From Candidatus Saccharimonadota bacterium (lineage in GTDB: Bacteria > Patescibacteriota > Saccharimonadia > Saccharimonadales > Saccharimonadaceae), in the NCBI GenBank assembly GCA_017431465.1, contig JAFRLA010000030.1, forward strand, positions 276 to 64,275: a DNA stretch of 64,000 nucleotides. The letters run 5' to 3'. Shown here piece after piece: positions 22,261 through 57,841 of the stretch (position 1 is the first letter of the stretch; each line of letters starts with the position of its first letter). The position numbers and the translations under genes are program-made. The notes below the pieces were generated by a model. It was not told the origin of the DNA and made no database searches. It saw only the letters and a list, made by a program, of their open reading frames with translations.

Positions 22261-23994
22261 ATGAGTGCTAGAAAAGGTAAGCGTGGGCAAAAAATCATTC
22301 GAAAGTTTTCGCGGTTTTCTAAAAAGGCCGGCGAGAATAGTATGGAGCATATCCAAGAGAACCTCGTAGAGCGTGTTGACCATATTAAAAATGTTAAACT
22401 TCTCATCTTGGAGTGGTCTTTACTAGTTTTAGCCTTGATCATGTTATCGGTTACCCAAGCCTTTTGGTATGCGGAATCTTATTCAGTTGATTCTTGGGGC
22501 AAAGGAGGGACTTATACCGAGGGGACGCTTGGGAAAGTCAACTCGTTAAACCCGCTTTTTGCTTCGACGAGTAGCGAAAAAGCACTCTCGAAATTAATGT
22601 TCGCGACTTTGACCGCGCCAGATTATTCTGGCCATATCGGCCTAAACCTCGCTGTTTCGGTTAAGACTGAAGATTCTGGTAGTACTTGGACAATTAAGTT
22701 GCGTGATGGCGTAAAATGGTCAGACGGGGAACCGGTAACGAACCAGGATGTCTTATATACGGTGGCGATCTTAAAAGACCCAAGCGTCAACTCCTCGTAT
22801 TCCTCCAACCTTTCGAAGGTTGAAGTTACGGAAAAAGATGGCGAGCTTTTGTTCTCGCTTCCGACTGCCTATGCCAACTTCCCGTCGGCGTTAGATTTTC
22901 CGATTTTGCCTGAGCACGTTTTAAAAGACGTTGATGCCAGCTTACTTCTCGAGAACGCCTTTAGTTTATCTCCAGTAACTTCGGGTCCATTTTCTTACAA
23001 TGCGTCTCAGAATATCGGTACAACTGGTGAAAAAATCGTCTATTTGACGCCAAATGAGTCTTATTACGGTGGCGCGCCGCTTCTAGACAGTTTCGCGATT
23101 CATGCTTTTGTCGATAAGGAATCTCTGATTGACGCAGTAAAAACGGGCGCTGTTACCGCGACTGCCGAATTATCTCCAAGCGAAGCCGAAAGTCTGGCTT
23201 CGAGCGCCTTTACCGAGCGTGAATCTGCAATAAATAGCGGAGTTTATGCCTTTTTCAATACAACTGGCACGATTTTCAATAATGCTGATCTTAGGAAGGC
23301 GGTCCAAAAAGGTTTAGATATGCGCTCGCTTCGCGCTCCAACTGGCGAAGAAGTCGCGCTTGACTATCCGTTGCTTAAAACTCAAACTACTCTTCAGGAT
23401 AGCCAGTACCCAACTTTGCCAGAATACGATCCAAAAGGCGCAAAAGAGATTATTAGCTCTGCAAATCTGGAGACCCCAGTAAATTTGGTCGCCGCCAACA
23501 CGGGCTATATTCCAGCAGTTGCTGAAAACTTGAAATACCAGCTAGAACAACTTGGTTTTAAAGTAGAGCTTCACGTTTATGATCCTGATCAGGATTTCTT
23601 GTTGACGGTGATTCGGCCGCGTGACTATGATATTCTTATCCAGGAAATCGGCCTTGGCGCCGACCCGGATCTGTTCGCTTATTATCATTCTTCTCAAGCC
23701 CAGCCAGGAGGTCTCAATCTCTCCAACTACAATAACGCCTTGGCTTCAGATTTGCTCCTCGCTGCGCGCGGAACAATGGACCAAGAAGTTCGGAATGCGA
23801 AATACGCCGCTTTCTTGAAACTTTGGGTTGAAGACGTCCCGGCAATTGGAATTTACCAAGCGAATATGGACTATCTCGTTAGCAAGAAGGTCCGTAGTTA
23901 CTCCAATGAGAATCATCTAGTTACCTCGATTGATCGCTACGAAGACGTCTCGTTCTGGGCCACTCAAAGAGTTACCAAAAACCGTACGCCGTAG
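22261..23994 (+). CDS. membrane-anchored solute-binding protein, ABC peptide/nickel family 5-like (orphan)
   Basis: It has an N-terminal TM anchor and a family-5 SBP-like pattern (W.DG.P.T..DV, PNE.Y). No permease or ATPase gene lies nearby. Confidence 0.7.
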   Translation: MSARKGKRGQKIIRKFSRFSKKAGENSMEHIQENLVERVDHIKNVKLLILEWSLLVLALIMLSVTQAFWYAESYSVDSWGKGGTYTEGTLGKVNSLNPLFASTSSEKALSKLMFATLTAPDYSGHIGLNLAVSVKTEDSGSTWTIKLRDGVKWSDGEPVTNQDVLYTVAILKDPSVNSSYSSNLSKVEVTEKDGELLFSLPTAYANFPSALDFPILPEHVLKDVDASLLLENAFSLSPVTSGPFSYNASQNIGTTGEKIVYLTPNESYYGGAPLLDSFAIHAFVDKESLIDAVKTGAVTATAELSPSEAESLASSAFTERESAINSGVYAFFNTTGTIFNNADLRKAVQKGLDMRSLRAPTGEEVALDYPLLKTQTTLQDSQYPTLPEYDPKGAKEIISSANLETPVNLVAANTGYIPAVAENLKYQLEQLGFKVELHVYDPDQDFLLTVIRPRDYDILIQEIGLGADPDLFAYYHSSQAQPGGLNLSNYNNALASDLLLAARGTMDQEVRNAKYAAFLKLWVEDVPAIGIYQANMDYLVSKKVRSYSNENHLVTSIDRYEDVSFWATQRVTKNRTP

Positions 23995-24009: not shown

Positions 24010-25074
24010 ATGGTTAAAAAGCGAGGTAAAAACCTATTGTTCTCGATTGCTATAACCATGCTTTTTATTGCTGTCGGAGTGTTGTTGATTCTACAACATG
24101 AGCCAGTAGATAGCGAGGCCTATTCTCTGCTTGTACGAACGGGAATTTCTTATCGACTAAGTAGTTTTATCAGCCTCATTATAGTTTCCGCTGCAGTTTT
24201 TATTATCTCCCAATTTACCGCTTTTAAAAAGTGGCAAAAAATTCTAATTGTCCTATCTGGTGGCTTTTTCTATTTCCCGTCGGTCCATGCCAGTTTCGGT
24301 ATTGCGACTTTTAATTGGGGGGCGAAGGCCGATTATTGGGAATTCTCTAAACAGCTAAACGAGTCGCTTTACGGGGTGTTAATCCCGATTTTCGAACTTG
24401 GATTAGCGTTTTTACTGATCTACCTCTGCGCTCGCTACTTAAAATTGTTTTTTGCCGCAGTTTTAACAATCTGCGGCTATCTCCTACTTCTATATTTTGC
24501 TGCACCGCTCCCGCTTTCTGGCGAAGCGACTGCTCCTCTACTTGCTTTAATGGTATTATTTATTGCTTTAACCTTCTCTGCGAAACGACGAGGCCGCAAT
24601 CGTCTCGATCAAATCTTTGGCCGGCTAGAAACGTACAAGTTGATCAAGGCTCACACCTCGGTCCGTTCACTTTGCCTAATCCCTGTCATTCTCTCAGTCC
24701 CCCACGCCGTATTTAGTGCGATAAGTGACTTAACAGGCGAGGTCTCGGACGCCTATACAATCTCTAGCCAGATTAATCAGCTCCCAGAAAATACGGTAAT
24801 TTTACCAGCTTCGCCTACCGTAAGAAGTGAACTAGAGCTTTACGCTCCGTTGCTTGACGCTAGTCACGAAATTCATAGTAGCACCGTAAATGATGAGAAC
24901 CTTGATGACACGATATCTGAATTAGCTGGAAAACGCATCTATATTGCGCTAAGAATTAATGCCTGTGGGGAGTCTGCCGACAATATTGCGTTAGATAAGA
25001 ATTGGAATTTGACTGAATTAGCCACATCAAAAAACGCCCTGAAATTGGCGTTAGTATCTGGTGCGCCTGACTAG
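24010..25074 (+). CDS. hypothetical polytopic membrane protein with a C-terminal soluble domain
   Basis: 354-aa ORF with multiple TM segments. The last 16 nt overlap tRNA-Leu on the opposite strand. Confidence 0.5.
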   Translation: MVKKRGKNLLFSIAITMLFIAVGVLLILQHEPVDSEAYSLLVRTGISYRLSSFISLIIVSAAVFIISQFTAFKKWQKILIVLSGGFFYFPSVHASFGIATFNWGAKADYWEFSKQLNESLYGVLIPIFELGLAFLLIYLCARYLKLFFAAVLTICGYLLLLYFAAPLPLSGEATAPLLALMVLFIALTFSAKRRGRNRLDQIFGRLETYKLIKAHTSVRSLCLIPVILSVPHAVFSAISDLTGEVSDAYTISSQINQLPENTVILPASPTVRSELELYAPLLDASHEIHSSTVNDENLDDTISELAGKRIYIALRINACGESADNIALDKNWNLTELATSKNALKLALVSGAPD

Positions 25075-25147
25075 ACTCGAACTAGCACAGCCAAAAACGG
25101 CCACTACCACCTCAAGGTAGCGTGTCTACCAATTCCACCACAGGCGC
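25059..25147 (-). tRNA. tRNA-Leu (GAG)
   Basis: Class II tRNA GCGCCTG...CAGGCGC-A-CCA with anticodon stem CTACC/GGTAG, loop TTGAGGT and a long variable arm. Confidence 0.9.
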
Positions 25148-25261
25148 ATTAAAGTACTTATTTATTATATCATACTTTTAAAAAACAGGGAATAAATCGG
25201 CTAATCACCTCTATCCTGTGGAAAACTTTTTGACAATTTTGAAAAAAGTCCAAAAAAAGTA

Positions 25262-25290
25262 TTGACATAAGCATATTAGTAGTCTATAAT
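25262..25290 (+). promoter_or_regulatory. consensus promoter TTGACA-17-TATAAT for the surface-protein cluster
   Basis: TTGACA at 25262-25267 and TATAAT at 25285-25290. A 45-nt leader carries gaaaggaaa before the ATG at 25336. Confidence 0.65.
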
Positions 25291-25335
25291 CAGAAGGGTA
25301 AAGGTCATATAATAAAAAAGAAAGGAAACACAAAT

Positions 25336-26118
25336 ATGTCCAAAACAACTAAAATTATTGCTGCCCTTGGGGTAGTTGCAGGTATCGGAGTCGCTTCGTT
25401 GCCATTAGCATCCTACGCAGAAGGCGAAACTTCTGTAAGCGGTAACGTTCGTCTTGAGGTTGAAATCTCTCCGGCGATCGCTATGCGTATTCACTCTAAC
25501 GCTGATCAAACTTGTACTGATGATGACAGCGATCCAGAGACACCAGATACGTGTACTGATAACTACGGCTTTATCGGTTATGAACCAGCTGACGCTCAGG
25601 GTCCTAGCGACGCTGCTGCGGTTGCAGGTCCGTCTCTCGCAACTGGCTTACAGTTAAGCGCTAACCAAGCTGATGAATCGACCCTCTTCTCTGAGATCGA
25701 GGTCCGTTCTAACACTGGCGCCTTCAAGCTCGAGCTTCTTGACGCTGATGATGATACTAACTTGAACCTTGCTACTCCGTCGGCAACTGCTAACGAGTAC
25801 ATTCCAGCAGGTGTTACCCTCATCTCTGGCGGTGCTAATGATGGCAAAATCAACGGCCAGGTTGCTGGTTGGGCAGTTAAAGGTGGTGACGTAACTTCTT
25901 GGACTGCTGTCCCAGCTGGTGCTTCTGCTGATTACGATGCTGACGCTGGTACTGGTACTGCTGCTCAGACTCCGCTTACGATTCTTGCTAGCGGTTCTAA
26001 CGCTACTTCCCCGCTTGCTTATAGCGCGAAGACCACGGTTAACTATGGCGTTGCTTCCGGTTTGACTAAGACTGGTGTTTACAGCGACATCGTTACCTAC
26101 ACTGCTACTGCTATCTAA
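25336..26118 (+). CDS. secreted Ala/Thr/Gly/Asp-rich surface protein (cluster gene A; WxL-protein-like position)
   Basis: Signal peptide MSKTTKIIAALGVVAGIGVASLPLASYA, a beta-strand-like composition and a paralog at 42118. No family is securely recognised. Confidence 0.75.
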   Translation: MSKTTKIIAALGVVAGIGVASLPLASYAEGETSVSGNVRLEVEISPAIAMRIHSNADQTCTDDDSDPETPDTCTDNYGFIGYEPADAQGPSDAAAVAGPSLATGLQLSANQADESTLFSEIEVRSNTGAFKLELLDADDDTNLNLATPSATANEYIPAGVTLISGGANDGKINGQVAGWAVKGGDVTSWTAVPAGASADYDADAGTGTAAQTPLTILASGSNATSPLAYSAKTTVNYGVASGLTKTGVYSDIVTYTATAI

Positions 26119-26229
26119 TTTAGCCAATAGCAAAGCCCCTCTGTCCAAGGATAGAGGGGTTTTTGTGTAAAATGGGTCTTGCATTTAACTTCCCGCTCGT
26201 GTATAATTGGGTACATAACAAGGAGGTTA

Positions 26230-27258
26230 ATGACTGTAAAACGAACGAAACTTAGCATTGCTGCCGCGTTCGCAGCTCTATCAGTAGGGGTAAATATTTT
26301 AACACCAATTAACACCCAAGCCGCCGACGACAAGAGTGTTAATTCTAACGTTGGGCCGGCTTTTTTGCAGGTCTCGCCGACTAAACAGCGGATTTCTATC
26401 GAGCCAGGATCGCATTACGTATCCTCGTTCAAGGTCCAAAATATCGGAGAAACGACCTTCTCCTACAAGGCTTATGCAACGCCGTTTAATGTAATTAACG
26501 AGAACTACGAGTCTGATTATAGTACTCGCGGTACTTATAGCCAGATTTCTGAGTGGATTACCTTTGATTCCGCTACTGAGACCGGTACTTTGGATCCAAA
26601 TAGCGAGAAAGAAGTTTCTTTCACCGTTAATGTTCCAAAAGACGCCCCGGCTGGTGGTCAATATGCCGCTATCATGGCGGAGACCCAGGACGGTAGCTCA
26701 GAGGCGAACAACATCCGTACCGTTAACCGTGTCGGGATGATTCTTTACGCTTCTATCGCGGGCGAGACTAAAAAAGAAGGTCAAGTTCTTGAAAATAAGA
26801 TCCCAGGCTTCGTTTTGAACCCACCGCTAACTGCTACTTCCCTCGTCGAGAATACTGGTAACGTCGAGGCAACTGCGGAATATACCTTTAAGATCTGGAA
26901 GCTCTTTGATAAAGAGACAGTTTACTCTAACGAAGACAAGAAGGGGTCCTTAGATATTATGCCGGGCACGAAGCGTTTCGGCACTATCAACTGGGATGGC
27001 GCTCCAAAAATTGGTGTCTTCTGGGTTGAACAGACTATCAATTATCTCGGGAAGACTTCGACTAACAAGAAACTTGTGATTATCTGCCCGCTCTGGCTCT
27101 TATTCCTAATTCTTGCGGTAATCTTCTTCCTAGTCTTCTGGCTAGTCAGCCGTATCCGTAGTCGGAAACAGGCTAAAAACGGTGGCGAGTCTCCGAAACG
27201 CTCTCGCTCTCGCCGCAGCCTCATTAAGAAGGAGAAAAAAGATGAGAAAAAAGACTAA
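26230..27258 (+). CDS. surface protein with signal peptide and C-terminal TM anchor, DUF916/DUF3324 (CscA)-like architecture (cluster gene B)
   Basis: AGGAGG lies before the ATG at 26230, and the signal peptide ends TQA|ADD. It has two beta-sandwich-like halves, a C-terminal TM and a Lys/Arg-rich tail. It is a paralog of gene C. Confidence 0.75.
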   Translation: MTVKRTKLSIAAAFAALSVGVNILTPINTQAADDKSVNSNVGPAFLQVSPTKQRISIEPGSHYVSSFKVQNIGETTFSYKAYATPFNVINENYESDYSTRGTYSQISEWITFDSATETGTLDPNSEKEVSFTVNVPKDAPAGGQYAAIMAETQDGSSEANNIRTVNRVGMILYASIAGETKKEGQVLENKIPGFVLNPPLTATSLVENTGNVEATAEYTFKIWKLFDKETVYSNEDKKGSLDIMPGTKRFGTINWDGAPKIGVFWVEQTINYLGKTSTNKKLVIICPLWLLFLILAVIFFLVFWLVSRIRSRKQAKNGGESPKRSRSRRSLIKKEKKDEKKD

Positions 27259-28228
27259 TGGATTCCGCGTTTTAAGCCTTGTTGCTGCGACAATCCTTGG
27301 TCTAGGCTCTCTCCTGTCCTTTGTCCCGTCCGTCGGGGCAGAGGAGGGAGCCAAAGAGACTCAGAAGCCAGCCGTCTGGCTTCAAATCTCCCCAGTTTCC
27401 AATAAAGTCACATTGGTTGCTGGCGAAAAGAACGAATATAACTTTACGGTCTCGAATATTGGTTCTGAGACTTTTAGCTATCATGTCTATGCCGCTCCGT
27501 ACTCGATCAGCGATGAGGAATATAACGTTAATTTCTCTAACGAAACAAATCGTACTCAGATTTCTCGCTGGATTAAGTTCTACGACGCTGAGAATAAATT
27601 GACAGATCGAGCCGGCTTCACTATCAAAAGTGGCGAAAAACAGACGATCAATTACCAAATTTCCGTCCCGGAAGATATCCCGGCCGGCGGCCAATATGCT
27701 ACGATCTTTGCCGAATCTGACGAAACTGAAGGTGAGCTCTCTAGCTCTGGAATTAAAACCGTTTCGCGGGTTGGCCTAATTGTCTATGGTCGTACAGAAG
27801 GGGAGACCGAAGATAAAGCCAATATTACTGATTTTAACATCCCGACTTTTCTAACCTCCGGTAAAATTAGTGCCGATTCTCGGGTAGAAAACAACGGTAA
27901 TACCGATTTTGAGGTGGTTTACGAATTCGAAGTAAGTTCGATTTTCGGGAAACAACTTTTTGTAAAGAATAACGCCTATAATATTCTCCCAGATACTGCT
28001 CGTCATGTTAAAACCGAATGGGAAGAAACCCCGATGATGGGCTTTTATAAAGTTCATTATAAAGTCGCCGCTTTGAACGGTGAAACCACTCGTGAAGCTA
28101 CTAAGATTGTAGTCATAATGCCAATTTGGATGATAATTATAAGCATAATCCTATTGACATTTATCATCGTTTGGGTTATAATCCTTATTAGGAAGCGCAA
28201 AGAGCGCAAGTCCCGCCTCCTCGTCTAG
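27242..28228 (+). CDS. paralog of gene B (cluster gene C), with the same architecture
   Basis: AAGGAG lies before the ATG at 27242, and the gene overlaps the end of gene B by 17 nt. Motifs shared with gene B are LQ[VI]SP, NIG.ETFSY, QIS.WI.F, PAGGQYA.I.AE, TV.RVG.I.Y and VEN.GN. It ends in a TM plus RKRKERK. Confidence 0.75.
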   Translation: MRKKTNGFRVLSLVAATILGLGSLLSFVPSVGAEEGAKETQKPAVWLQISPVSNKVTLVAGEKNEYNFTVSNIGSETFSYHVYAAPYSISDEEYNVNFSNETNRTQISRWIKFYDAENKLTDRAGFTIKSGEKQTINYQISVPEDIPAGGQYATIFAESDETEGELSSSGIKTVSRVGLIVYGRTEGETEDKANITDFNIPTFLTSGKISADSRVENNGNTDFEVVYEFEVSSIFGKQLFVKNNAYNILPDTARHVKTEWEETPMMGFYKVHYKVAALNGETTREATKIVVIMPIWMIIISIILLTFIIVWVIILIRKRKERKSRLLV

Positions 28229-28312
28229 GAGTTATAGAGAAGGCGCGGGCTTGAACTGCGAGCTGTTCTCTGCGAAGCCAAAATAAAAACCTAAAAAGAA
28301 AGAGTGTGAAGT

Positions 28313-29236
28313 ATGCAAATAAGCAAAAAACATCTTTTTGGCATAGGTGGTTTGGTTGCCGTAGCAGCTACTGTTGCCTATGCCTCGACTTTGCCTGCTC
28401 CAGACGCCGACGCTACAGGGAGCGTTAGTGGGCAAGTTAAGGTTTCCGTCAATGTTTATGGGGAGAATCCAGAGGTTCGGATTACTACCATTAAAGACGG
28501 GGACGTTTTTGTCGATGGCAATATCGACATTGGCGCTATCTATACTGTTGCAGAATCTTTGGACTACCAACTCTGCAAAAACTATGGTGAAGCCAATGAA
28601 TATTGCGCCAATCTTGGTACAAACGGGACATATACCCCAGAGACTATACCAGAATCGGGCGAGCGCGCTTTCGGTTTCGACTTAGACTCTGATCCAAACC
28701 TTGGTTTCGGTGATTATGTCTTAAAAGTCGTAAACCATGCCTATAACGGCACTGTCGAAGACGCAGTATCGTTTAAATATGTACCGATAAAAATCACTAC
28801 GGTTGGTACGGCCGAGAATGGTGATCCGATCGTTGAAGTAGAGTATGCCGCAAAGATTAACTCGTTTGATCTCCAAGCATACGATAAAGATGATAAGCCG
28901 CTGTTTGATAATGCATTGAATATTAGTGTGGATAATCCAGGGGTCAGCGGCACAAAGCAGGTAACCTTGCCGTTCGCGAGCTATGGAGCAGCGAGTGGTG
29001 ACTATACCGTGTCGGCTCAGGGCCGAGGGGCTGATGGCACGATCTACACTGGCCAGATCGCTTACACTGACGTAAAATATCAGGCTCCGGACGCTCCAGA
29101 GGTGCCAAAAACTGGTGGCTTACTCCAGAGTTTAAATATTACTAAATCAGATTATATTATCACAGGAGTAATCGTGTTTGTACTTGCTACTGCTTTCGCG
29201 GTCCGCACGTTAAAAAAACGTAACAACCGACGCTAA
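28313..29236 (+). CDS. sortase-substrate-type surface protein (cluster gene D)
   Basis: It has a signal peptide and an Ig-like repetitive body. The C-terminal sorting signal is VPKTG (nt 29102-29116), followed by a hydrophobic segment and KKRNNRR. Confidence 0.75.
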   Translation: MQISKKHLFGIGGLVAVAATVAYASTLPAPDADATGSVSGQVKVSVNVYGENPEVRITTIKDGDVFVDGNIDIGAIYTVAESLDYQLCKNYGEANEYCANLGTNGTYTPETIPESGERAFGFDLDSDPNLGFGDYVLKVVNHAYNGTVEDAVSFKYVPIKITTVGTAENGDPIVEVEYAAKINSFDLQAYDKDDKPLFDNALNISVDNPGVSGTKQVTLPFASYGAASGDYTVSAQGRGADGTIYTGQIAYTDVKYQAPDAPEVPKTGGLLQSLNITKSDYIITGVIVFVLATAFAVRTLKKRNNRR

Positions 29237-29276
29237 GCAAAATTAAGAATTAAAGTTTGTTTTTGGCTAATCTTTT

Positions 29277-29305
29277 GAAGTGCTTCTGCTTGGCAGAGGC
29301 ACTTC
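29277..29305 (+). terminator. 13-bp hairpin after the cluster (no T-run)
   Basis: gaagtgcttctgc-ttgg-gcagaggcacttc. Confidence 0.4.
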
Positions 29306-29385
29306 GTTCATGAGACATAAGTGCTTTTCTTTTTACAATAAATATGCTACAATTTACTTAATATAATTTAAAGGAGTTCATAATA

Positions 29386-31258: not shown

Positions 31259-32392
31259 CTATTTCTTCCTTAAAATTAATATTTCTCGGGCTACGATTTG
31301 TCCAGCTCGCGCATACAACAAATCGGACCCAAAATCTTTGTTTACATTATACCCCAGTTCAACAATCTTGTCAACAAGATTTAGACGCGAATAACTATCG
31401 TCCGGTCGAAGCCATGCTGGTACCGCCAAAACCACCGGCGTCCCAGATTTAATTTGCGGCGCAAGATTCTTTAAAAATCCGAGCAAAATACCCCCACACT
31501 CCTGTTTTGCCTCTTTTAACTTAATCTCTACTGGCGTCTGAGACATTGGCGGCCCAAGATAAGTCTCGCACGCCACTGCGTCAATCGGCCCGGCCCACTG
31601 AAAATCAGTGGCGTCCCCGGTGCTGACCGAAAAAGGTAGCGCATCTTGCGACATCTGGAGCCCGGCCGCCAGCCAGCGAAGGTTTTTCTCAGAATATTCA
31701 ACCATCCGCTCAGACAAATCCGTTCCGTACGCTGCGTAGCCCATCAAAATCGCTTCTTGCAAAACTACTCCCGTCCCGCAGAACGGATCAAGCACTCGTG
31801 CGCCATCCGGAAGTTCCCCACAAAGGTTGATCAGGATTTGTGCTAATTTCGGCGGCAACATCCCAACCCGGGCGTCTCGCGCCGGGCGCGCCTGGTCACG
31901 CCGAGCATATGCGGTAATATTTTGTGCCCCGATTGATCGGTACCAATCTTTGCCGACCCGCATTAGCTCAACATGCAGTGGCTTATCGAAAACTCCTAAT
32001 CCATTATGATGCGCCGCGGCAGTAGAAATTGCTGACCCGGCCGAGTTTGGCAAAACGCGTACGCTTCGCCCGGCCTTCTTAAGGACGCGCTTTAGTTTTA
32101 AGGCCTCACTAGCGGCCGATCGTGCAGATGCTCGCATAGAATAGTCCGAAACTCCGAGTGTGATTTTACCTTCTGGCAAAGAAGACAAAAATTTCGCAGG
32201 CGAAACGGACAATAGCTCGCCAAATTTCAAACTCCCTCCGAATCGTGATAACTCTGGGCGAGAATTAGCAGAAAAAGTAGCTAAACTAGAACCTTTGACA
32301 ACTGGCGAAATAGACTCTACGTCGCCAAATTGTGCGCGCAGTTCCGCCAGAGAAATTTCCGGCTGCCGTCCTAAAATCGCCAGATAACGCAT
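31259..32392 (-). CDS. putative SAM-dependent RNA/DNA methyltransferase (UPF0020/Trm11-like)
   Basis: Motif I VLDPFCGTGVVLQEA sits in the C-terminal half. A minus-strand TATAAT (32399-32404) lies 6 nt before the ATG. Confidence 0.65.
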   Translation of the reverse strand: MRYLAILGRQPEISLAELRAQFGDVESISPVVKGSSLATFSANSRPELSRFGGSLKFGELLSVSPAKFLSSLPEGKITLGVSDYSMRASARSAASEALKLKRVLKKAGRSVRVLPNSAGSAISTAAAHHNGLGVFDKPLHVELMRVGKDWYRSIGAQNITAYARRDQARPARDARVGMLPPKLAQILINLCGELPDGARVLDPFCGTGVVLQEAILMGYAAYGTDLSERMVEYSEKNLRWLAAGLQMSQDALPFSVSTGDATDFQWAGPIDAVACETYLGPPMSQTPVEIKLKEAKQECGGILLGFLKNLAPQIKSGTPVVLAVPAWLRPDDSYSRLNLVDKIVELGYNVNKDFGSDLLYARAGQIVAREILILRKK

Positions 32393-41063: not shown

Positions 41064-41981
41064 ATGTATGATGTAATTATTATCGGCGCCGGCACAGCAG
41101 GACTTACCGCCGCGATTTACGCCGCACGCGCGAATAAAAAAGTGATAGTTTTAGAGGGCAAAACCTATGGTGGCCAAATTATCACGACTTTTAATATCGA
41201 GAATTACCCAGCCACCCCGCACATTTCCGGTGTCGATTTCGCGAAACAGCTTTATGCCCAGGCGGTCGAGTTAGGCGCCGAGGTTGAGTTTGAAGAAGTT
41301 TTAGCAGTCAAAAAGATCGAAGGCGCCGAGGAGTCATCGAGGCTGATGTTTGAGGTCGAAACCGAGGATGATAAATACGAGGCGCCCGCAGTTATTCTCG
41401 CTACCGGCTCTGAGGATAAGAGACTTGGTCTTAAAAATGAGGAGGAATTTACTGGCCGCGGCGTTTCCTACTGCGCGACTTGCGACGGCGCAATTTATAA
41501 AGGCGAGGAAGTCGCCGTGGTTGGTGGCGGTAACACTGCGCTCTACGATACGCTATATCTTTCCGATGTCGCAAAAAAAGTTTATCTTATCCATCGTCGC
41601 GATGAGTTCCGCGGCGACCCAGCCCTAGTCGATAAAATTAAAAAACACGACAATGTTGAGTTTGTCATGGACACGCAAGTCACTGAAATTAAAGGCGAAA
41701 AAAAGCTAGAAAGCATCGAACTGACTAATAAGAACGGCGAAAAGAAAGAACTAAAAGTCTCTGCGCTTTTCGTGGCGATCGGTCGCACGCCCGCAACGGC
41801 GGCGTTCGCGAATCTGGTCGAGCTTGATGATGGTGGCTACATCGTGGCCGACGAGAGCTGTCTAACTAGCACGCCCGGCATCTTTGCCGCCGGCGACGTC
41901 CGGACGAAATCTCTGCGTCAGCTCGTTACCGCCACCGCAGACGGCGCCGTCGCCGGCAATGCCGCCGCCGAGCTGTCCTAA
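41064..41981 (+). CDS. trxB: thioredoxin-disulfide reductase
   Basis: Motifs GAGTAGLTAA, the CATCDG redox centre, GGGNTA and GIFAAGD. Confidence 0.93.
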   Translation: MYDVIIIGAGTAGLTAAIYAARANKKVIVLEGKTYGGQIITTFNIENYPATPHISGVDFAKQLYAQAVELGAEVEFEEVLAVKKIEGAEESSRLMFEVETEDDKYEAPAVILATGSEDKRLGLKNEEEFTGRGVSYCATCDGAIYKGEEVAVVGGGNTALYDTLYLSDVAKKVYLIHRRDEFRGDPALVDKIKKHDNVEFVMDTQVTEIKGEKKLESIELTNKNGEKKELKVSALFVAIGRTPATAAFANLVELDDGGYIVADESCLTSTPGIFAAGDVRTKSLRQLVTATADGAVAGNAAAELS

Positions 41982-42117: not shown

Positions 42118-42910
42118 ATGAAAACTAATACTAAAATATTTGCCGCTCTCGGCGTAGTAGCTGGCCTAGGTCTCGCCGCCTTCCCAGCCTTCTCCTACGC
42201 TCTTGATGTCTCTGGTGATGTAGAAGTAGAAACAGAAGTAACCCCATCTCTTGCTATGCGTATTCATTCTAACGCAGACGCCACCGGAGAATATGGCTTT
42301 ATAGGCTATAACCCAGCCACTGCAGAAGGTTCAGGCGACCCAGCTGCCGCTGCTGGCCCATCTCAGGCTACTGGCCTTTCTCTTTCTTCTAACCAAGCTG
42401 ATACGACCACTCTTTACTCTAACATTTCTATCCGCTCCAATACTGGCAAATTCAAACTAGAAGTCACTGATGCCGATACAGACAATGCTCTAAGAAACGA
42501 AGCTGGCTCTACTACAGAAAACCAATACATTCCAGCTGGCGTCACTATGAGCACAAGCGACAGTACCACTATCGCTGCTCTAGGTACTAACACTACTAAC
42601 CCACTAGCCTACAGCCTCCATCTGCCCGAAAGGCTGGAGACTCCCAACCAACTCAGAGTTCCAAACCCTCTATAACAACTATAATAGTGCAAGCAGCATG
42701 ATGAGTTCTAGCGGCCCTGCCTTCGTCCTGTCTGGCTACCGCTACGGCGGCAGTATCCTCGCTCAGGGCTCCAACGGCTACTATTGGTCGTCTGTGGCGG
42801 ACGATAGTAACTACGCCTACAACCTGTACCTGAATAGCTCCAGTGTCAACCCTCAGAACTACAACGGCAAGTGGCTCGGGTTTACTGTACGCTGCATAGC
42901 TGCTAGCTAG
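42118..42910 (+). pseudogene. chimeric, frameshifted gene: paralog of cluster gene A (N-terminal ~165 aa) joined out of frame to the C-terminal half of a FISUMP domain
   Basis: Frame 1 (42118-42675) matches gene A up to NPLAYS, then diverges to a stop. Frame 2 is open from 42608 and reads PTASICPKGWRLPTNSEFQTL...GYYWSS...GFTVRCIAAS-stop at 42910. Confidence 0.65.
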
Positions 42911-55741: not shown

Positions 55742-57364
55742 ATGATAAAAGTCAATAGAGTTTTGGCGGCGACTGGATTAGCGCTTGCTGGTGCTTTTGT
55801 ACCGCTAGCCGGTCTGGCTCACGCCGACACATATACTTATACCGTAAGTTTTACCGCTTCGGGGACACATACTCTGGCCACGGCCGGCGCCGAAGGTATT
55901 CAGGTTGACGGTAGTGACGTCATCACATTAACCGCTCCTGGCGCTTCGCCGATGGATCCGCCGGAAGTTATCGGTACTGCGGCCTGTGCGGACACGACGC
56001 ATTGTTCGATTACCGTTACCGACGGCCCGACTGGCGAGCTGATGTATAACGGCGCTAACTTTGCGGTCAAAACTACCGATGAGTGTGGTATTGATGTCGG
56101 ACCTGATTATCGCATTAATCGCGATGTGGCGCTTTCGGTTGCCGACCCTGAGGCCAGCCTCTTCACTGGCAAGGTCTGGTTCTTCTGGAACTGCGATGAC
56201 GGATTTTGTAAACAGCTGATTACTGGTATTACCGGCACCGAAGACGACGAAGATCCGTTTACCGGCCAACACCACTTTACTTATCATACGAAGTGGGTTG
56301 ATCAAACTACGATTAACGACGGCGGCAAAACTCCAAGCGTCGCAACTCTTTCTGATGATGACTATCGTATCATCTGGGAAGTCCCTGGTAATACTCCAGC
56401 AAACGACGCCTCGATTGATACTTGGGCGAAATACACCGCTTGGGAAGAAGCCCAGCTGGCGGCTACCGGCCCAGTTACTTGTACGAACGGCGAAGGGAAT
56501 AGCTACCAGGTTGATCCGTCTTACGATAAACTCAAACAGCTTCGTATCGACCCGACCGGCGCTTCGAAAGGCAAAAGCATCATTTCTACAAACGGCGATC
56601 GTGCTTTCCGCTTGACCATCTATGATCCTTCTACTTACTTTGGCGTGACCAACGCTTCGAACCCGTCCGACCTAGAATATTGGCCAGACTTCTGGGACGA
56701 AGGCATGTTTAACCCGGCTTATGATCTCTCTGGGACAACCGCCGCGGCTCCGCAGACTATGCAGGCTTATCTCCTAGGCGATACTGTAACTTTGAGGGCT
56801 GACGAAAAATCCGCTCCGATTTCGGGCATTTCGATTGCTTCTGAAGGCGTTTCAGCCGCTGCAGTTACGATTTCTCAATCTGGCGCAAACTGGAACTTGA
56901 AGTTTAACTCCAACTACTACGACAAGGTCGTCTTTAAGATTACTGCTGGTGGCCAGGATCGCTACCTCCAGATTAATCGCCTGAACGTCCTCGCCGTAAC
57001 TCCAGACCCGTACAACGGCAACACTCTCGGCGCGCGGGCTTACATCCCTACGCCTAACGATGGCGAATTCGATGTCGTTGCGACCTACTACTACGCCAGT
57101 GGCTCGTCTAAGACCACTTTGCTTGAGAAGTCTGGCAACGCTCAGGGCGCTGGTAAAAACCTGAAAGCTCAGATGTACAAGGTCCCGGCTTCCGCTGGTA
57201 TTACTATGAACGGTCTTGGCGCAGGTAGCCCAGTCGGCGTTTCCTTCACCATCGTTCGCGCTGGTAGCACCCCAACGAATTATAAAGGCACGCTCGCTGG
57301 TTCTGGCCGCGGTGTTTATTACACCTTCGACCGAAGCGGGACAATCTTTGGAAAGGCATTTTAA
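55742..57364 (+). CDS. hypothetical secreted protein (540 aa)
   Basis: AAGGAG SD upstream, signal peptide ...GLAHA|DT and several Cys pairs. No family recognised. Confidence 0.7.
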   Translation: MIKVNRVLAATGLALAGAFVPLAGLAHADTYTYTVSFTASGTHTLATAGAEGIQVDGSDVITLTAPGASPMDPPEVIGTAACADTTHCSITVTDGPTGELMYNGANFAVKTTDECGIDVGPDYRINRDVALSVADPEASLFTGKVWFFWNCDDGFCKQLITGITGTEDDEDPFTGQHHFTYHTKWVDQTTINDGGKTPSVATLSDDDYRIIWEVPGNTPANDASIDTWAKYTAWEEAQLAATGPVTCTNGEGNSYQVDPSYDKLKQLRIDPTGASKGKSIISTNGDRAFRLTIYDPSTYFGVTNASNPSDLEYWPDFWDEGMFNPAYDLSGTTAAAPQTMQAYLLGDTVTLRADEKSAPISGISIASEGVSAAAVTISQSGANWNLKFNSNYYDKVVFKITAGGQDRYLQINRLNVLAVTPDPYNGNTLGARAYIPTPNDGEFDVVATYYYASGSSKTTLLEKSGNAQGAGKNLKAQMYKVPASAGITMNGLGAGSPVGVSFTIVRAGSTPTNYKGTLAGSGRGVYYTFDRSGTIFGKAF

Positions 57365-57373
57365 GGAGGAATT

Positions 57374-57841
57374 ATGGCTAAAGAAATTTTAACTCTAGAC
57401 GCAGTAATCTCAGACGGTGTCATTACCGTCAACGGCGCCGCCGAAGATGGCATGCTCGCCGCCGCGATCGTAATCTATAACGCCGACGGTACGCAGATGT
57501 TATTTGCCGAATCGACCAGTGTCGCCGCGGACGGCAGTTTCGCCTACACGCTTGACACCGGCGCTCGCGGAACCTACATTGTTTCCGTCGCTGATTATGA
57601 GGGTAACGCTACAGCTAAAGTCGTCACGGTTTCTGAATCTACTGCCGCTGAGGCCTCGGTTGGTTCGCCGAAAACCGGTTTTGAGACCCAGCCAGCCGCC
57701 GCTAGCCCAGCTCCAGAGGCTAACGCCTCGGCGATTTCTGGCGCACTCTTCTTCGTCGGCTTTCTCGCTCTAGCCGCGGCCGGATTTTTCGCCGCTCGCC
57801 TAGTTATGCGTCGCCGCGCTCGCTCCCGCAGAGAAGCCTAA
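57374..57841 (+). CDS. small protein with a C-terminal SPKTG motif, TM and Arg-rich tail but no N-terminal signal peptide
   Basis: AGGAGG SD upstream and a beta-sandwich-like N-terminal domain (DGSFAYTLDTGARGTYIVSV). SPKTG lies at nt 57665-57679, followed by a 20-aa linker, a TM and RRRARSRREA. Confidence 0.65.
   Translation: MAKEILTLDAVISDGVITVNGAAEDGMLAAAIVIYNADGTQMLFAESTSVAADGSFAYTLDTGARGTYIVSVADYEGNATAKVVTVSESTAAEASVGSPKTGFETQPAAASPAPEANASAISGALFFVGFLALAAAGFFAARLVMRRRARSRREA

Follow-up and report, generated by a model that had tools for sequence, protein, structure and literature searches.

We favour, if only slightly, the view that four co-directional genes of a Candidatus Saccharibacteria genome, here denoted A to D, encode a compact usher-less chaperone–subunit surface filament or complex, the Saccharibacteria counterpart of the Pam pilus. 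The genes lie on the plus strand of a 64,000-nucleotide stretch of DNA (hereafter the window; contig JAFRLA010000030.1 of assembly GCA_017431465.1, positions 276 to 64,275), and coordinates below are those of the window. Gene A (25336–26118; 260 aa, 26.1 kDa, pI 4.1) is an open reading frame (ORF) for a putative secreted pilin-like subunit with a single beta-rich domain. Gene B (26230–27258; 342 aa, 37.9 kDa, pI 9.3) encodes a membrane-anchored chaperone-like protein with two Ig-like domains, a PamD-like, remote homologue of WxLIP/DUF916 proteins, and gene C (27242–28228; 328 aa, 36.8 kDa, pI 5.8) its paralogue. Gene D (28313–29236; 307 aa, 32.6 kDa) codes for a secreted Ig-like protein, possibly a PamR-like or CscD-like anchor. 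A first-pass annotation, made from the letters of the DNA, had reported these four genes with the same positions and lengths and had considered that the organism might belong to the Candidate Phyla Radiation (CPR), as it indeed does. An identical region is present on three metagenome contigs, where independent gene calls gave the same four genes, the same lengths and the same 17-nt overlap between B and C. The frames of B and C are open from 26179 to 27258 and from 27182 to 28228, with ATG codons at 26230 and 27242, respectively; an AGGAGG Shine-Dalgarno sequence 6 nt upstream of the former codon backs the start of B. The overlap, which had also been noticed previously, is consistent with translational coupling of the two genes. 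Inspected by eye, each of the four products starts with a basic n-region followed by a hydrophobic core and a site of the A-x-A type.

B and C are full-length paralogues (BLASTP, 31% identity over 320 residues, E 3e-47), as had been proposed, and the sequence blocks said to be common to them are all present, with NIG.ETFSY being off by one residue in B (NIGETTFSY). The AlphaFold2 model of B (pLDDT 85) contains beta-sandwiches at residues 46–176 and 184–285 and a C-terminal helix at residues 288–318, which agrees with the architecture predicted in the first-pass annotation; C possesses a hydrophobic segment and a basic tail homologous to the transmembrane end of B. When the model of B was compared to the PDB using Foldseek, the three best matches were solved WxLIP structures of Enterococcus faecium (9i1y and 9i25; E 3.4e-13 to 2.6e-11), with the alignment to 9i1y spanning 263 columns. 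These were followed by RbmA (E 2e-10) and by the pilus chaperones CfaA, CsuC, PapD and FimC (E 1e-8 to 1e-7). WxLIPs consist of a PGBD, an HBD and a transmembrane helix, and in published AlphaFold2 models a hairpin strand of the WxLIP is predicted to complete the beta-sandwich of its WxL partner (Hassan & Williamson 2023, PMC10599100). In B, a low-confidence hairpin (residues ∼153–166) is found at the position aligning with that of the WxLIP hairpin.

The relationship to WxLIPs is also recognisable at the sequence level. PF06030 (DUF916) matches B and C over nearly their full length, albeit below the threshold (18.3 and 13.7 bits, respectively; cut-off 27.3), and sub-threshold matches were obtained for 25/49 and 36/150 members of the B/C family (best E 1e-5 to 1.6e-6), the related Ig-like families fn3_5 and NPCBM_assoc matching at similar levels. 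A broad profile of 150 family representatives (50% identity) searched against 177,635 PDB sequences had EfmWxLIP1 as its sole significant match (E 1.3e-4; next match 0.42); breadth was needed here, since a narrower profile of the family retrieved nothing from the PDB sequences. For profile–profile comparisons with hhalign, a reference set of 13 Firmicute WxLIPs and 16 WxL proteins was assembled from an E. faecium locus and 12 plasmid loci (a homologue search seeded with the EfmWxLIP1 fragment gave only nine fragments, and the reference WxL clusters came from contigs and plasmids). The B/C family aligned to the WxLIPs with a probability of 98.8% (E 1.2e-16) at full length, of 95.7% (E 9e-9) when the ectodomains were compared without signal peptide or transmembrane helix, and of 97.0% (E 1.2e-10) when domain 1 was compared to the PGBD. 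Domain 2 against the HBD yielded 2.6% (E 0.017), and shuffled and reversed controls at most 0.2% (E 0.26–0.66). Taken together, the hhalign, PDB profile and Foldseek results therefore identify domain 1 of B and C as a real remote homologue of DUF916, whereas domain 2 corresponds to the HBD only in where it lies and in its class of fold.

The first-pass annotation had assigned B and C to a DUF916/DUF3324 type, of which only the former half is supported. PF11797 (DUF3324) matched none of the 49 and 150 family members searched (0/199) and the comparison of domain 2 to the HBD was not significant, so that DUF3324 was rejected as a sequence-recognisable part of B and C. The conserved motif NQIDKxxxYFDLK, located near the N-terminus of the PGBD, is likewise absent from both proteins, the aligned position reading FLQVSPTKQRISIEPG in B and WLQISPVSNKVTLVAG in C. 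Matches to PapD_N and PapD_C (PF00345/PF02753) were found neither in B and C nor in the 199 relatives. The B/C family is very large: clustering at 50% identity leaves 9,257 representatives at E ≤ 0.001, of which 680 reach E ≤ 1e-30. The homology of these CPR chaperone-like proteins to the Firmicute WxLIPs appears to be new and unreported.

The whole cluster can likewise be compared to the WxL/Csc clusters of Lactobacillales and Bacillales (Siezen 2006, PMC1534035; PDB 9i1y, 9i25). Such clusters have one or more WxLIPs together with at least two WxL proteins, occur almost only in these two orders, and are recognised where two or more proteins with a WxL domain (PF13731) are encoded no more than four genes away from a WxLIP (PMC10599100). 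Besides the homology of domain 1 to the PGBD, B and C share with WxLIPs a signal peptide, two Ig-like domains, a transmembrane helix and a basic tail within about 330–345 aa. In 13 Firmicute clusters, as in the window, the gene for a small secreted beta-protein is located immediately upstream of the WxLIP-like gene and an LPXTG-type protein is encoded within the cluster. The gene order thus parallels that of real WxL clusters, as the first-pass annotation had maintained in matching the set to csc and WxL loci. The match does not extend to A, which is not a WxL domain, and the window cluster contains no WxL-domain protein where WxL clusters contain at least two. It further differs in having two tandem WxLIP-like genes instead of one, an anchored protein of 300 aa with Ig-like domains instead of about 105 aa, a second domain in B and C that is not recognisable as DUF3324 by sequence, no NQIDKxxxYFDLK motif, and an organism from another phylum.

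The candidacy of A as a WxL domain was rejected on several grounds. PF13731 matched none of 54 A-family members at E ≤ 1; hhalign gave 0.2% (E 0.3) for the family without signal peptide against the 16 WxL proteins and 0.5% for A against the E. faecium small WxL protein, with insignificant local pairing of C-terminal strands only; and the WxL chain of 9i25 was not among the top 50 Foldseek matches of A in the PDB. The order of motifs in A is loosely WxL-like (turn-G[YW]xLxV, G-T/A-W and a C-terminal Y...[LIV]T[YW]x[LA]), a likeness without statistical support, and, like A, some annotated WxL proteins have Y-x-I in place of W-x-L at their end. The resemblances listed above nevertheless suggest an alternative to a filament, namely, in line with the first-pass annotation, a discrete complex of the WxL/Csc type: B and C would be WxLIPs holding non-covalently bound A on the wall, A would stand in for the small WxL protein, D would be a CscD-like wall-anchored partner, and the product would be an adhesion or carbohydrate-binding heteromer rather than a polymer. 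That a WxLIP is the top structural match of B speaks for such a complex. Given that A behaves as a WxL protein in none of the searches, and that A and D share an N-terminal strand (see below) with no described counterpart in WxL clusters, we regard it as rather unlikely.

A instead bears a weak resemblance to fibre subunits. The A family comprises at least 158 Saccharibacteria proteins and has no match in Pfam or NCBIfam. In the AlphaFold2 model (pLDDT 87.8, pTM 0.79), the mature protein of ∼230 residues forms a single domain with nine strands in total. The best Foldseek matches of this model in the PDB were CsuA/B, CfaB, FimA, TasA and TLP-1a; although weak (E 0.02–0.15), they are all subunits of fibres assembled by donor-strand exchange. 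Directly after its signal peptide, A carries a putative donor strand (25432–25467, plus strand; residues 33–44, SVSGNVRLEVEI), the alternating positions of which are 91–100% hydrophobic and the glycine 93% conserved among 54 homologues. It aligns to a corresponding strand of D (28421–28459, plus strand; residues 37–49, SVSGQVKVSVNVY), in which four alternating positions are 100% hydrophobic and the glycine is 83% conserved among 23 homologues; mature A and D open with the common motif S-V-x-G-x-V-x-V-x-V-x-V, with hydrophobic residues in 93–100% of cases at its alternating positions. At the other end, the C-terminus of A is reached 3–4 residues past an invariant Y-T-A in 41/54 family members. 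An alternating-hydrophobic N-terminal strand with a glycine and an aromatic C-terminal strand resemble the N-terminal extension and the F-strand of pilins, and the N-terminal strand shared by A and D looks like a donor strand. In the library searched, no publication links WxL proteins to donor strands, the nearest being a single general review that mentions both separately.

Similarity to the classical and archaic chaperone-usher pili of Gram-negative bacteria (Pap, Fim, Csu and CFA/I) is thus apparent on two sides, the fold of B being PapD-like and the best folds for A being pilins. The cluster differs from these systems in that it has no usher-sized gene, there is no outer membrane and the chaperones are membrane-tethered. 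No PapD_N/PapD_C or fimbrial Pfam match was obtained in the A and B/C families.

A much closer parallel is provided by the Pam filaments of the Saccharibacterium Ca. Mycosynbacter amalyticus, which have recently been solved and for which the pam operon has been described (Troman et al., bioRxiv 2026, doi 10.64898/2026.03.03.709456). According to the same preprint, the Ig-like pilins PamA, PamB, PamE and PamT are built by donor-strand exchange, a donated strand completing the truncated Ig-like domain of a pilin; PamC and PamD are two PapD/FimC-like chaperones with C-terminal transmembrane helices; and PamR is an RbmA-like anchor with two FnIII/RbmA-like domains, an extra N-terminal strand and a C-terminal transmembrane helix. 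WxL, DUF916 and LPXTG are not mentioned there. The M. amalyticus proteins have accessions WP_260763277.1 to WP_260763289.1, PamC being WP_260763277.1, PamD WP_260763284.1, PamR WP_260763282.1 and PamT WP_260763289.1. Supplementary Table 1 of the preprint gives pamC as QHN42421.1, a 119-kDa protein encoded next to pilM, which conflicts with the text, where a PapD-like chaperone in the pam operon is described; a better fit is QHN43268.1 (36.5 kDa), whose gene lies directly upstream of pamB.

The two systems occur in the same bacterial class and have in common two paralogous PapD/FimC-like two-domain chaperones with C-terminal transmembrane helices (PamC/PamD and B/C), a single-domain small subunit (PamT and A) and, probably, the anchor, D resembling PamR in its N-terminal strand and in a C-terminal hydrophobic segment read from its sequence. 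All component sizes agree within 0.5 kDa: 25.6 kDa for PamT and 26.1 kDa for A, 37.4 kDa for PamD and 37.9 kDa for B, 36.5 kDa for the adjacent hypothetical protein QHN43268 (likely PamC) and 36.8 kDa for C, and 32.8 kDa for PamR and 32.6 kDa for D. In contrast to the pam operon, the four-gene cluster contains no two-domain major pilins (PamA, PamB and PamE), and no A-family gene of PamA or PamB size is present in it. The donor-like strand of A is N-terminal, whereas the Pam pilins use an internal linker strand, and D carries a conserved xPxTG sorting-like motif, none being mentioned for PamR. The PDB entries 25PZ and 25QA were not among our PDB search matches. On this comparison, we judge the cluster to be a compact variant of the Pam system. 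The statement of the first-pass annotation that a module of this kind is not characterised outside Firmicutes is consequently outdated: a functionally equivalent Pam pilus has been described in Saccharibacteria and, as the type of system is thereby already known (from the 2026 preprint only), the cluster is not categorically new. What appears to be new is the compact four-gene variant with a small subunit bearing an N-terminal strand, the presence on the anchor of a conserved sortase-like signal, and the conserved regulatory layout.

The conservation of the cluster was assessed in the 78 best related loci, drawn from species-representative genomes, all of which are metagenome-assembled genomes of Saccharibacteria or Ca. 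Nanosyncoccus, mostly from ruminant gut. Their ORFs were classed by hidden Markov models (HMMs), and layouts were counted on the 53 complete loci with sufficient flanking sequence. A co-directional layout of A (one to three copies), B, B' and D is found in most of the 78 species. Among the complete loci, A is located upstream in 36, two tandem B-family genes are present in 44 and D is located downstream in 47, while 32/53 combine all three features. Cluster conservation is far beyond chance. A keyword search of a transposon sequencing paper on Saccharibacteria (PMC10633639) did not find the cluster.

This conservation bears on the possibility that the four genes encode functionally independent envelope proteins with no chaperone–subunit relationship, B and C being RbmA-like matrix or envelope scaffolds, A a secreted surface protein that varies antigenically and D an adhesin of the ordinary anchored kind. 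RbmA is indeed the second-best fold match of B, the acidic inserts and the copy number of A vary within its family, and the separate promoters and the terminator described below would suit independent genes. Such independence is difficult to reconcile with a gene order maintained across 78 species, with the overlap of B and C, with the N-terminal strand motif shared by A and D, or with the homology of B and C to WxLIP, a protein defined by partner binding. We therefore consider it improbable.

D ends, as had been described, in VPKTG, a hydrophobic segment and KKRNNRR. This sorting-like signal (29102–29233, plus strand) comprises VPKTG and 39 further residues, which include the hydrophobic segment and terminate in the basic heptapeptide. 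The xPxT[GN] motif is present in 62/62 D-family members (TG in 60 and TN in two; VPDTG in 25, VPNTG in 14 and VPKTG in four); the tail beyond it is mostly 38–40 residues long, and the spacer that follows it is conserved as G.L..LN(I/L)S..D(Y/F)L(I/L)TG. In the pneumococcal pilus, the base subunit RrgC has VPDTG as its sorting motif. The NCBIfam model for LPXTG anchors (TIGR01167) did not match D at E ≤ 1. Pfam matches of the D family were to generic Ig-like domains only (FlgD_ig in 8/23 members, CopC in 3/23 and RbmA-like_FnIII in 1/23, E 0.029). A D profile had no match among PDB sequences, no WxL-domain match was found in D, and hhalign detected no significant similarity between D and the B/C ectodomain; a weak similarity to the HBD region of the WxLIP ectodomain (38%, E 3e-4) was not relied upon.

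The strong conservation of the xPxTG motif could indicate a sortase-polymerised pilus of the Gram-positive type, with D as covalent pilin or base subunit and A as an accessory protein. Over half of the genomes in the CPR are reported to encode a sortase, with a patchy distribution outside Microgenomates (PMC6744442). The first-pass annotation had taken the end of D for a sortase signal. No sortase was found in the 64-kb window (TLxTC regular expression, phmmer with a class A sortase, motif scan) or in the flanks of the 78 clusters, about 1.3 Mb (phmmer, motif scan; window and 78 loci together amount to about 573,000 ORF residues). The absence of a sortase of any class from these sequences, the lack of a pilin motif and of Cna_B/isopeptide-domain matches in the D family, and the lack of a sorting signal in A make a covalently polymerised pilus highly improbable.

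C-terminal tails of the same kind (xPxTG, a hydrophobic segment and basic residues) were encountered in unrelated proteins, namely two 140-aa proteins with IPKTG (locus L043, 838–1260, and locus L046, 918–1340, both on the minus strand) and one of 327 aa with APDTG (locus L075, 16577–17560, plus strand). The 140-aa proteins are encoded in a different type of cluster, in which a single B-family gene is flanked by inverted A-family genes; this type comes nearer to the arrangement in Firmicutes that includes a small LPXTG protein. In the WxL cluster of Enterococcus innesii plasmid pEIDB1 (locus L013, 4989–5783), the gene for a class A sortase comes directly after the WxLIP gene and overlaps with it. 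Therefore, a sortase can be integral to WxL clusters.

The perfect sigma-70-type promoter (TTGACA-17-TATAAT) noted upstream of A is present at 25262–25290 (plus strand, as are all signals of the cluster). Two signals not mentioned in the first-pass annotation accompany it. An intrinsic terminator or attenuator occupies the gap between A and B (26132–26170) and consists of a GC-rich stem of 14 bp (−24.8 kcal/mol, z −5.5) with the U-run UUUUUGUGU after it; a second perfect promoter (28154–28182) is located upstream of D, within the codons for the transmembrane helix at the 3' end of C. A putative weak promoter (TTGCAT-17-TATAAT, 9/12) together with the AGGAGG sequence precedes B (26179–26226), and a hairpin of 13–14 bp without U-tract (z −3.7) follows D (29276–29306). 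The window contains four perfect TTGACA-N17-TATAAT sites (1045–1073, 25262–25290 and 28154–28182 on the plus strand, 31346–31374 on the minus strand) versus 0.01 expected from shuffles; evidently, selected genes of the organism are served by sigma-70 promoters of the canonical consensus.

The same signals recur in the related loci. Promoters matching at 10/12 positions or more lie upstream of 68/83 A-family genes, as opposed to about 5% of random windows, and a hairpin with T-run follows A at 50/52 junctions between A and B. Upstream of D, the promoter matches at 12/12 positions in 49/62 loci and at 11/12 in the other 13/62 (1/600 random windows), and a hairpin with T-run follows D in 46/61. 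The four genes had initially been placed behind one promoter; a single four-gene operon was rejected in favour of three units because of the terminator after A and D's own perfect promoter. With B and C overlapping, the cluster thus probably forms three transcription units, A, B–C and D. Judging from these signals, the strand-bearing A and D look strongly expressed and the B–C pair attenuated. A terminator after the gene for the major subunit is typical of pilus operons.

The gene structures, their conservation, the regulatory signals, the homology of domain 1 of B and C to WxLIP and the predicted folds have been shown above; the scheme of the compact Pam-type assembly that we favour is inferred, as regards strand exchange and polymerisation, the parts played by B/C and by D, and what the product does for the cell. 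A would be exported as the structural subunit, made up of one pilin-like beta domain and, at its N-terminus, a donor strand of alternating hydrophobicity. B and C would act as paralogous chaperones held in the cytoplasmic membrane by their C-terminal helices and, after Sec export, would cap and stabilise the incomplete beta-sandwich of A with a strand of their own. By donor-strand exchange, they would then release A to the A subunit that follows, whose N-terminal strand would take the place of theirs. D, which combines the same N-terminal strand with Ig-like domains and an xPxTG/transmembrane/basic tail, would close off the final subunit and anchor the structure in the membrane or, should D be a sortase substrate, on the wall. 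The arrangement of the genes would follow the logic of a pilus operon, with consensus promoters for A and D and the translationally coupled B–C pair behind a terminator. Saccharibacteria live attached to other bacteria and, type IV pili apart, little is known of how they make contact. For a CPR bacterium with an epibiotic life, the most plausible use of the product would be in contacting its host bacterium or surfaces.

Several observations weigh against this assembly. Filaments have not been observed in this organism. The Foldseek matches of A are not significant (E ≥ 0.02, TM-score about 0.3–0.45), and the likeness to Pam is one of published descriptions and sizes. A has a single domain, whereas PamA, PamB and PamE have two (an N-terminal domain of nine strands, an internal strand serving as linker, and a domain at the C-terminus), and PamT, which is nearest to A in size, is described as a low-abundance protein without a donor strand. 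No ATP synthase family was found within 10 kb on either side of the cluster, unlike in the reported neighbourhood of pamA, so that the window cluster could be a paralogous system. Finally, the very strong and conserved promoter of D would be unexpected for a rare terminator subunit. It suits an abundant anchored partner better, and the non-filamentous WxL-like complex therefore stays a live rival.

The relationship of B and C to WxLIPs raises a broader possibility, which we put forward tentatively and which we doubt more than we believe: WxL/Csc clusters and the Pam pili of CPR bacteria might derive from one ancient monoderm chaperone–subunit system, with a membrane-tethered two-Ig-domain chaperone (WxLIP, PamC/PamD and B/C) as its hallmark and the four-gene cluster as its minimal form. 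If so, the cluster would unite two classic pilus paradigms, donor-strand exchange for polymerisation and a sortase-type signal for wall anchoring, and WxL clusters, too, would work by donor-strand complementation instead of forming simple complexes that bind peptidoglycan. The homology joins two literatures that do not cite each other, one on WxL proteins in virulence and adhesion of Enterococcus, Listeria and Lactobacillus and the other on Pam pili of CPR bacteria. It suggests strand complementation by a membrane-tethered chaperone, which can be tested in genetically tractable Firmicutes. The cluster is near-universal in a large gut-associated lineage of Saccharibacteria, yet every named homologue of A and B that was listed is a 'hypothetical protein' of Candidatus Saccharibacteria. 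A compact Pam-type reading would turn these into a testable parts list for a candidate host-contact structure, consisting of a subunit, two chaperones, an anchor and regulatory signals.

A-family domains are also found outside the four-gene layout. A second A-family gene, likewise absent from the first-pass annotation, is located in the window at 42118–42675 (plus strand; 185 aa; HMM E 2.7e-47), between a thioredoxin-reductase-like gene (41064–41981) and tRNA-Phe, with no adjoining B- or D-family gene. The C-terminus of its product (…LAYSLHLPERLETPNQLRVPNPL) departs from the A family, and the gene is therefore possibly truncated or frameshifted. In related loci, larger proteins of 350–688 aa combine an N-terminal A domain with cysteine-containing modules (L048, 17718–19784 and 19854–20999; L087, 14654–16228; L094, 13820–15076; L086, 1708–2760), the L086 protein having a low-complexity linker and a transmembrane anchor in place of the cysteine modules. 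The C-terminal modules display the motifs CPxGWRLP, YWSS and RCV, and presumably resemble a Fibrobacter-type lectin-like paralogous domain. In some genomes, these larger proteins are encoded just downstream of the B-B'-D genes. They may be adhesin-bearing subunits, and their position beside the clusters fits a modular assembly domain.

Immediately upstream of the cluster lies a gene for a 354-aa multi-pass membrane protein without Pfam match (24010–25074, plus strand), the last 16 nt of which overlap tRNA-Leu on the opposite strand (25059–25147, minus strand); it adjoins the cluster in only five related loci. This protein, a 111-aa protein and Lgt were rejected as parts of the cluster, as their flanking genes are not conserved with it. 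Further upstream, a peptide-binding-type SBP_bac_5 protein with an N-terminal membrane segment is encoded (22261–23994, plus strand); its gene is found upstream of the cluster in 31 related loci, which may reflect moderate conservation as a neighbour or no more than local synteny. At a greater distance, a 540-aa ORF (55742–57364, plus strand) is followed by a 155-aa ORF (57374–57841, plus strand), both without Pfam match. The 155-aa product ends in APEAN, a hydrophobic segment and RRRARSRREA, and the two ORFs may encode another pair of surface or anchored proteins.

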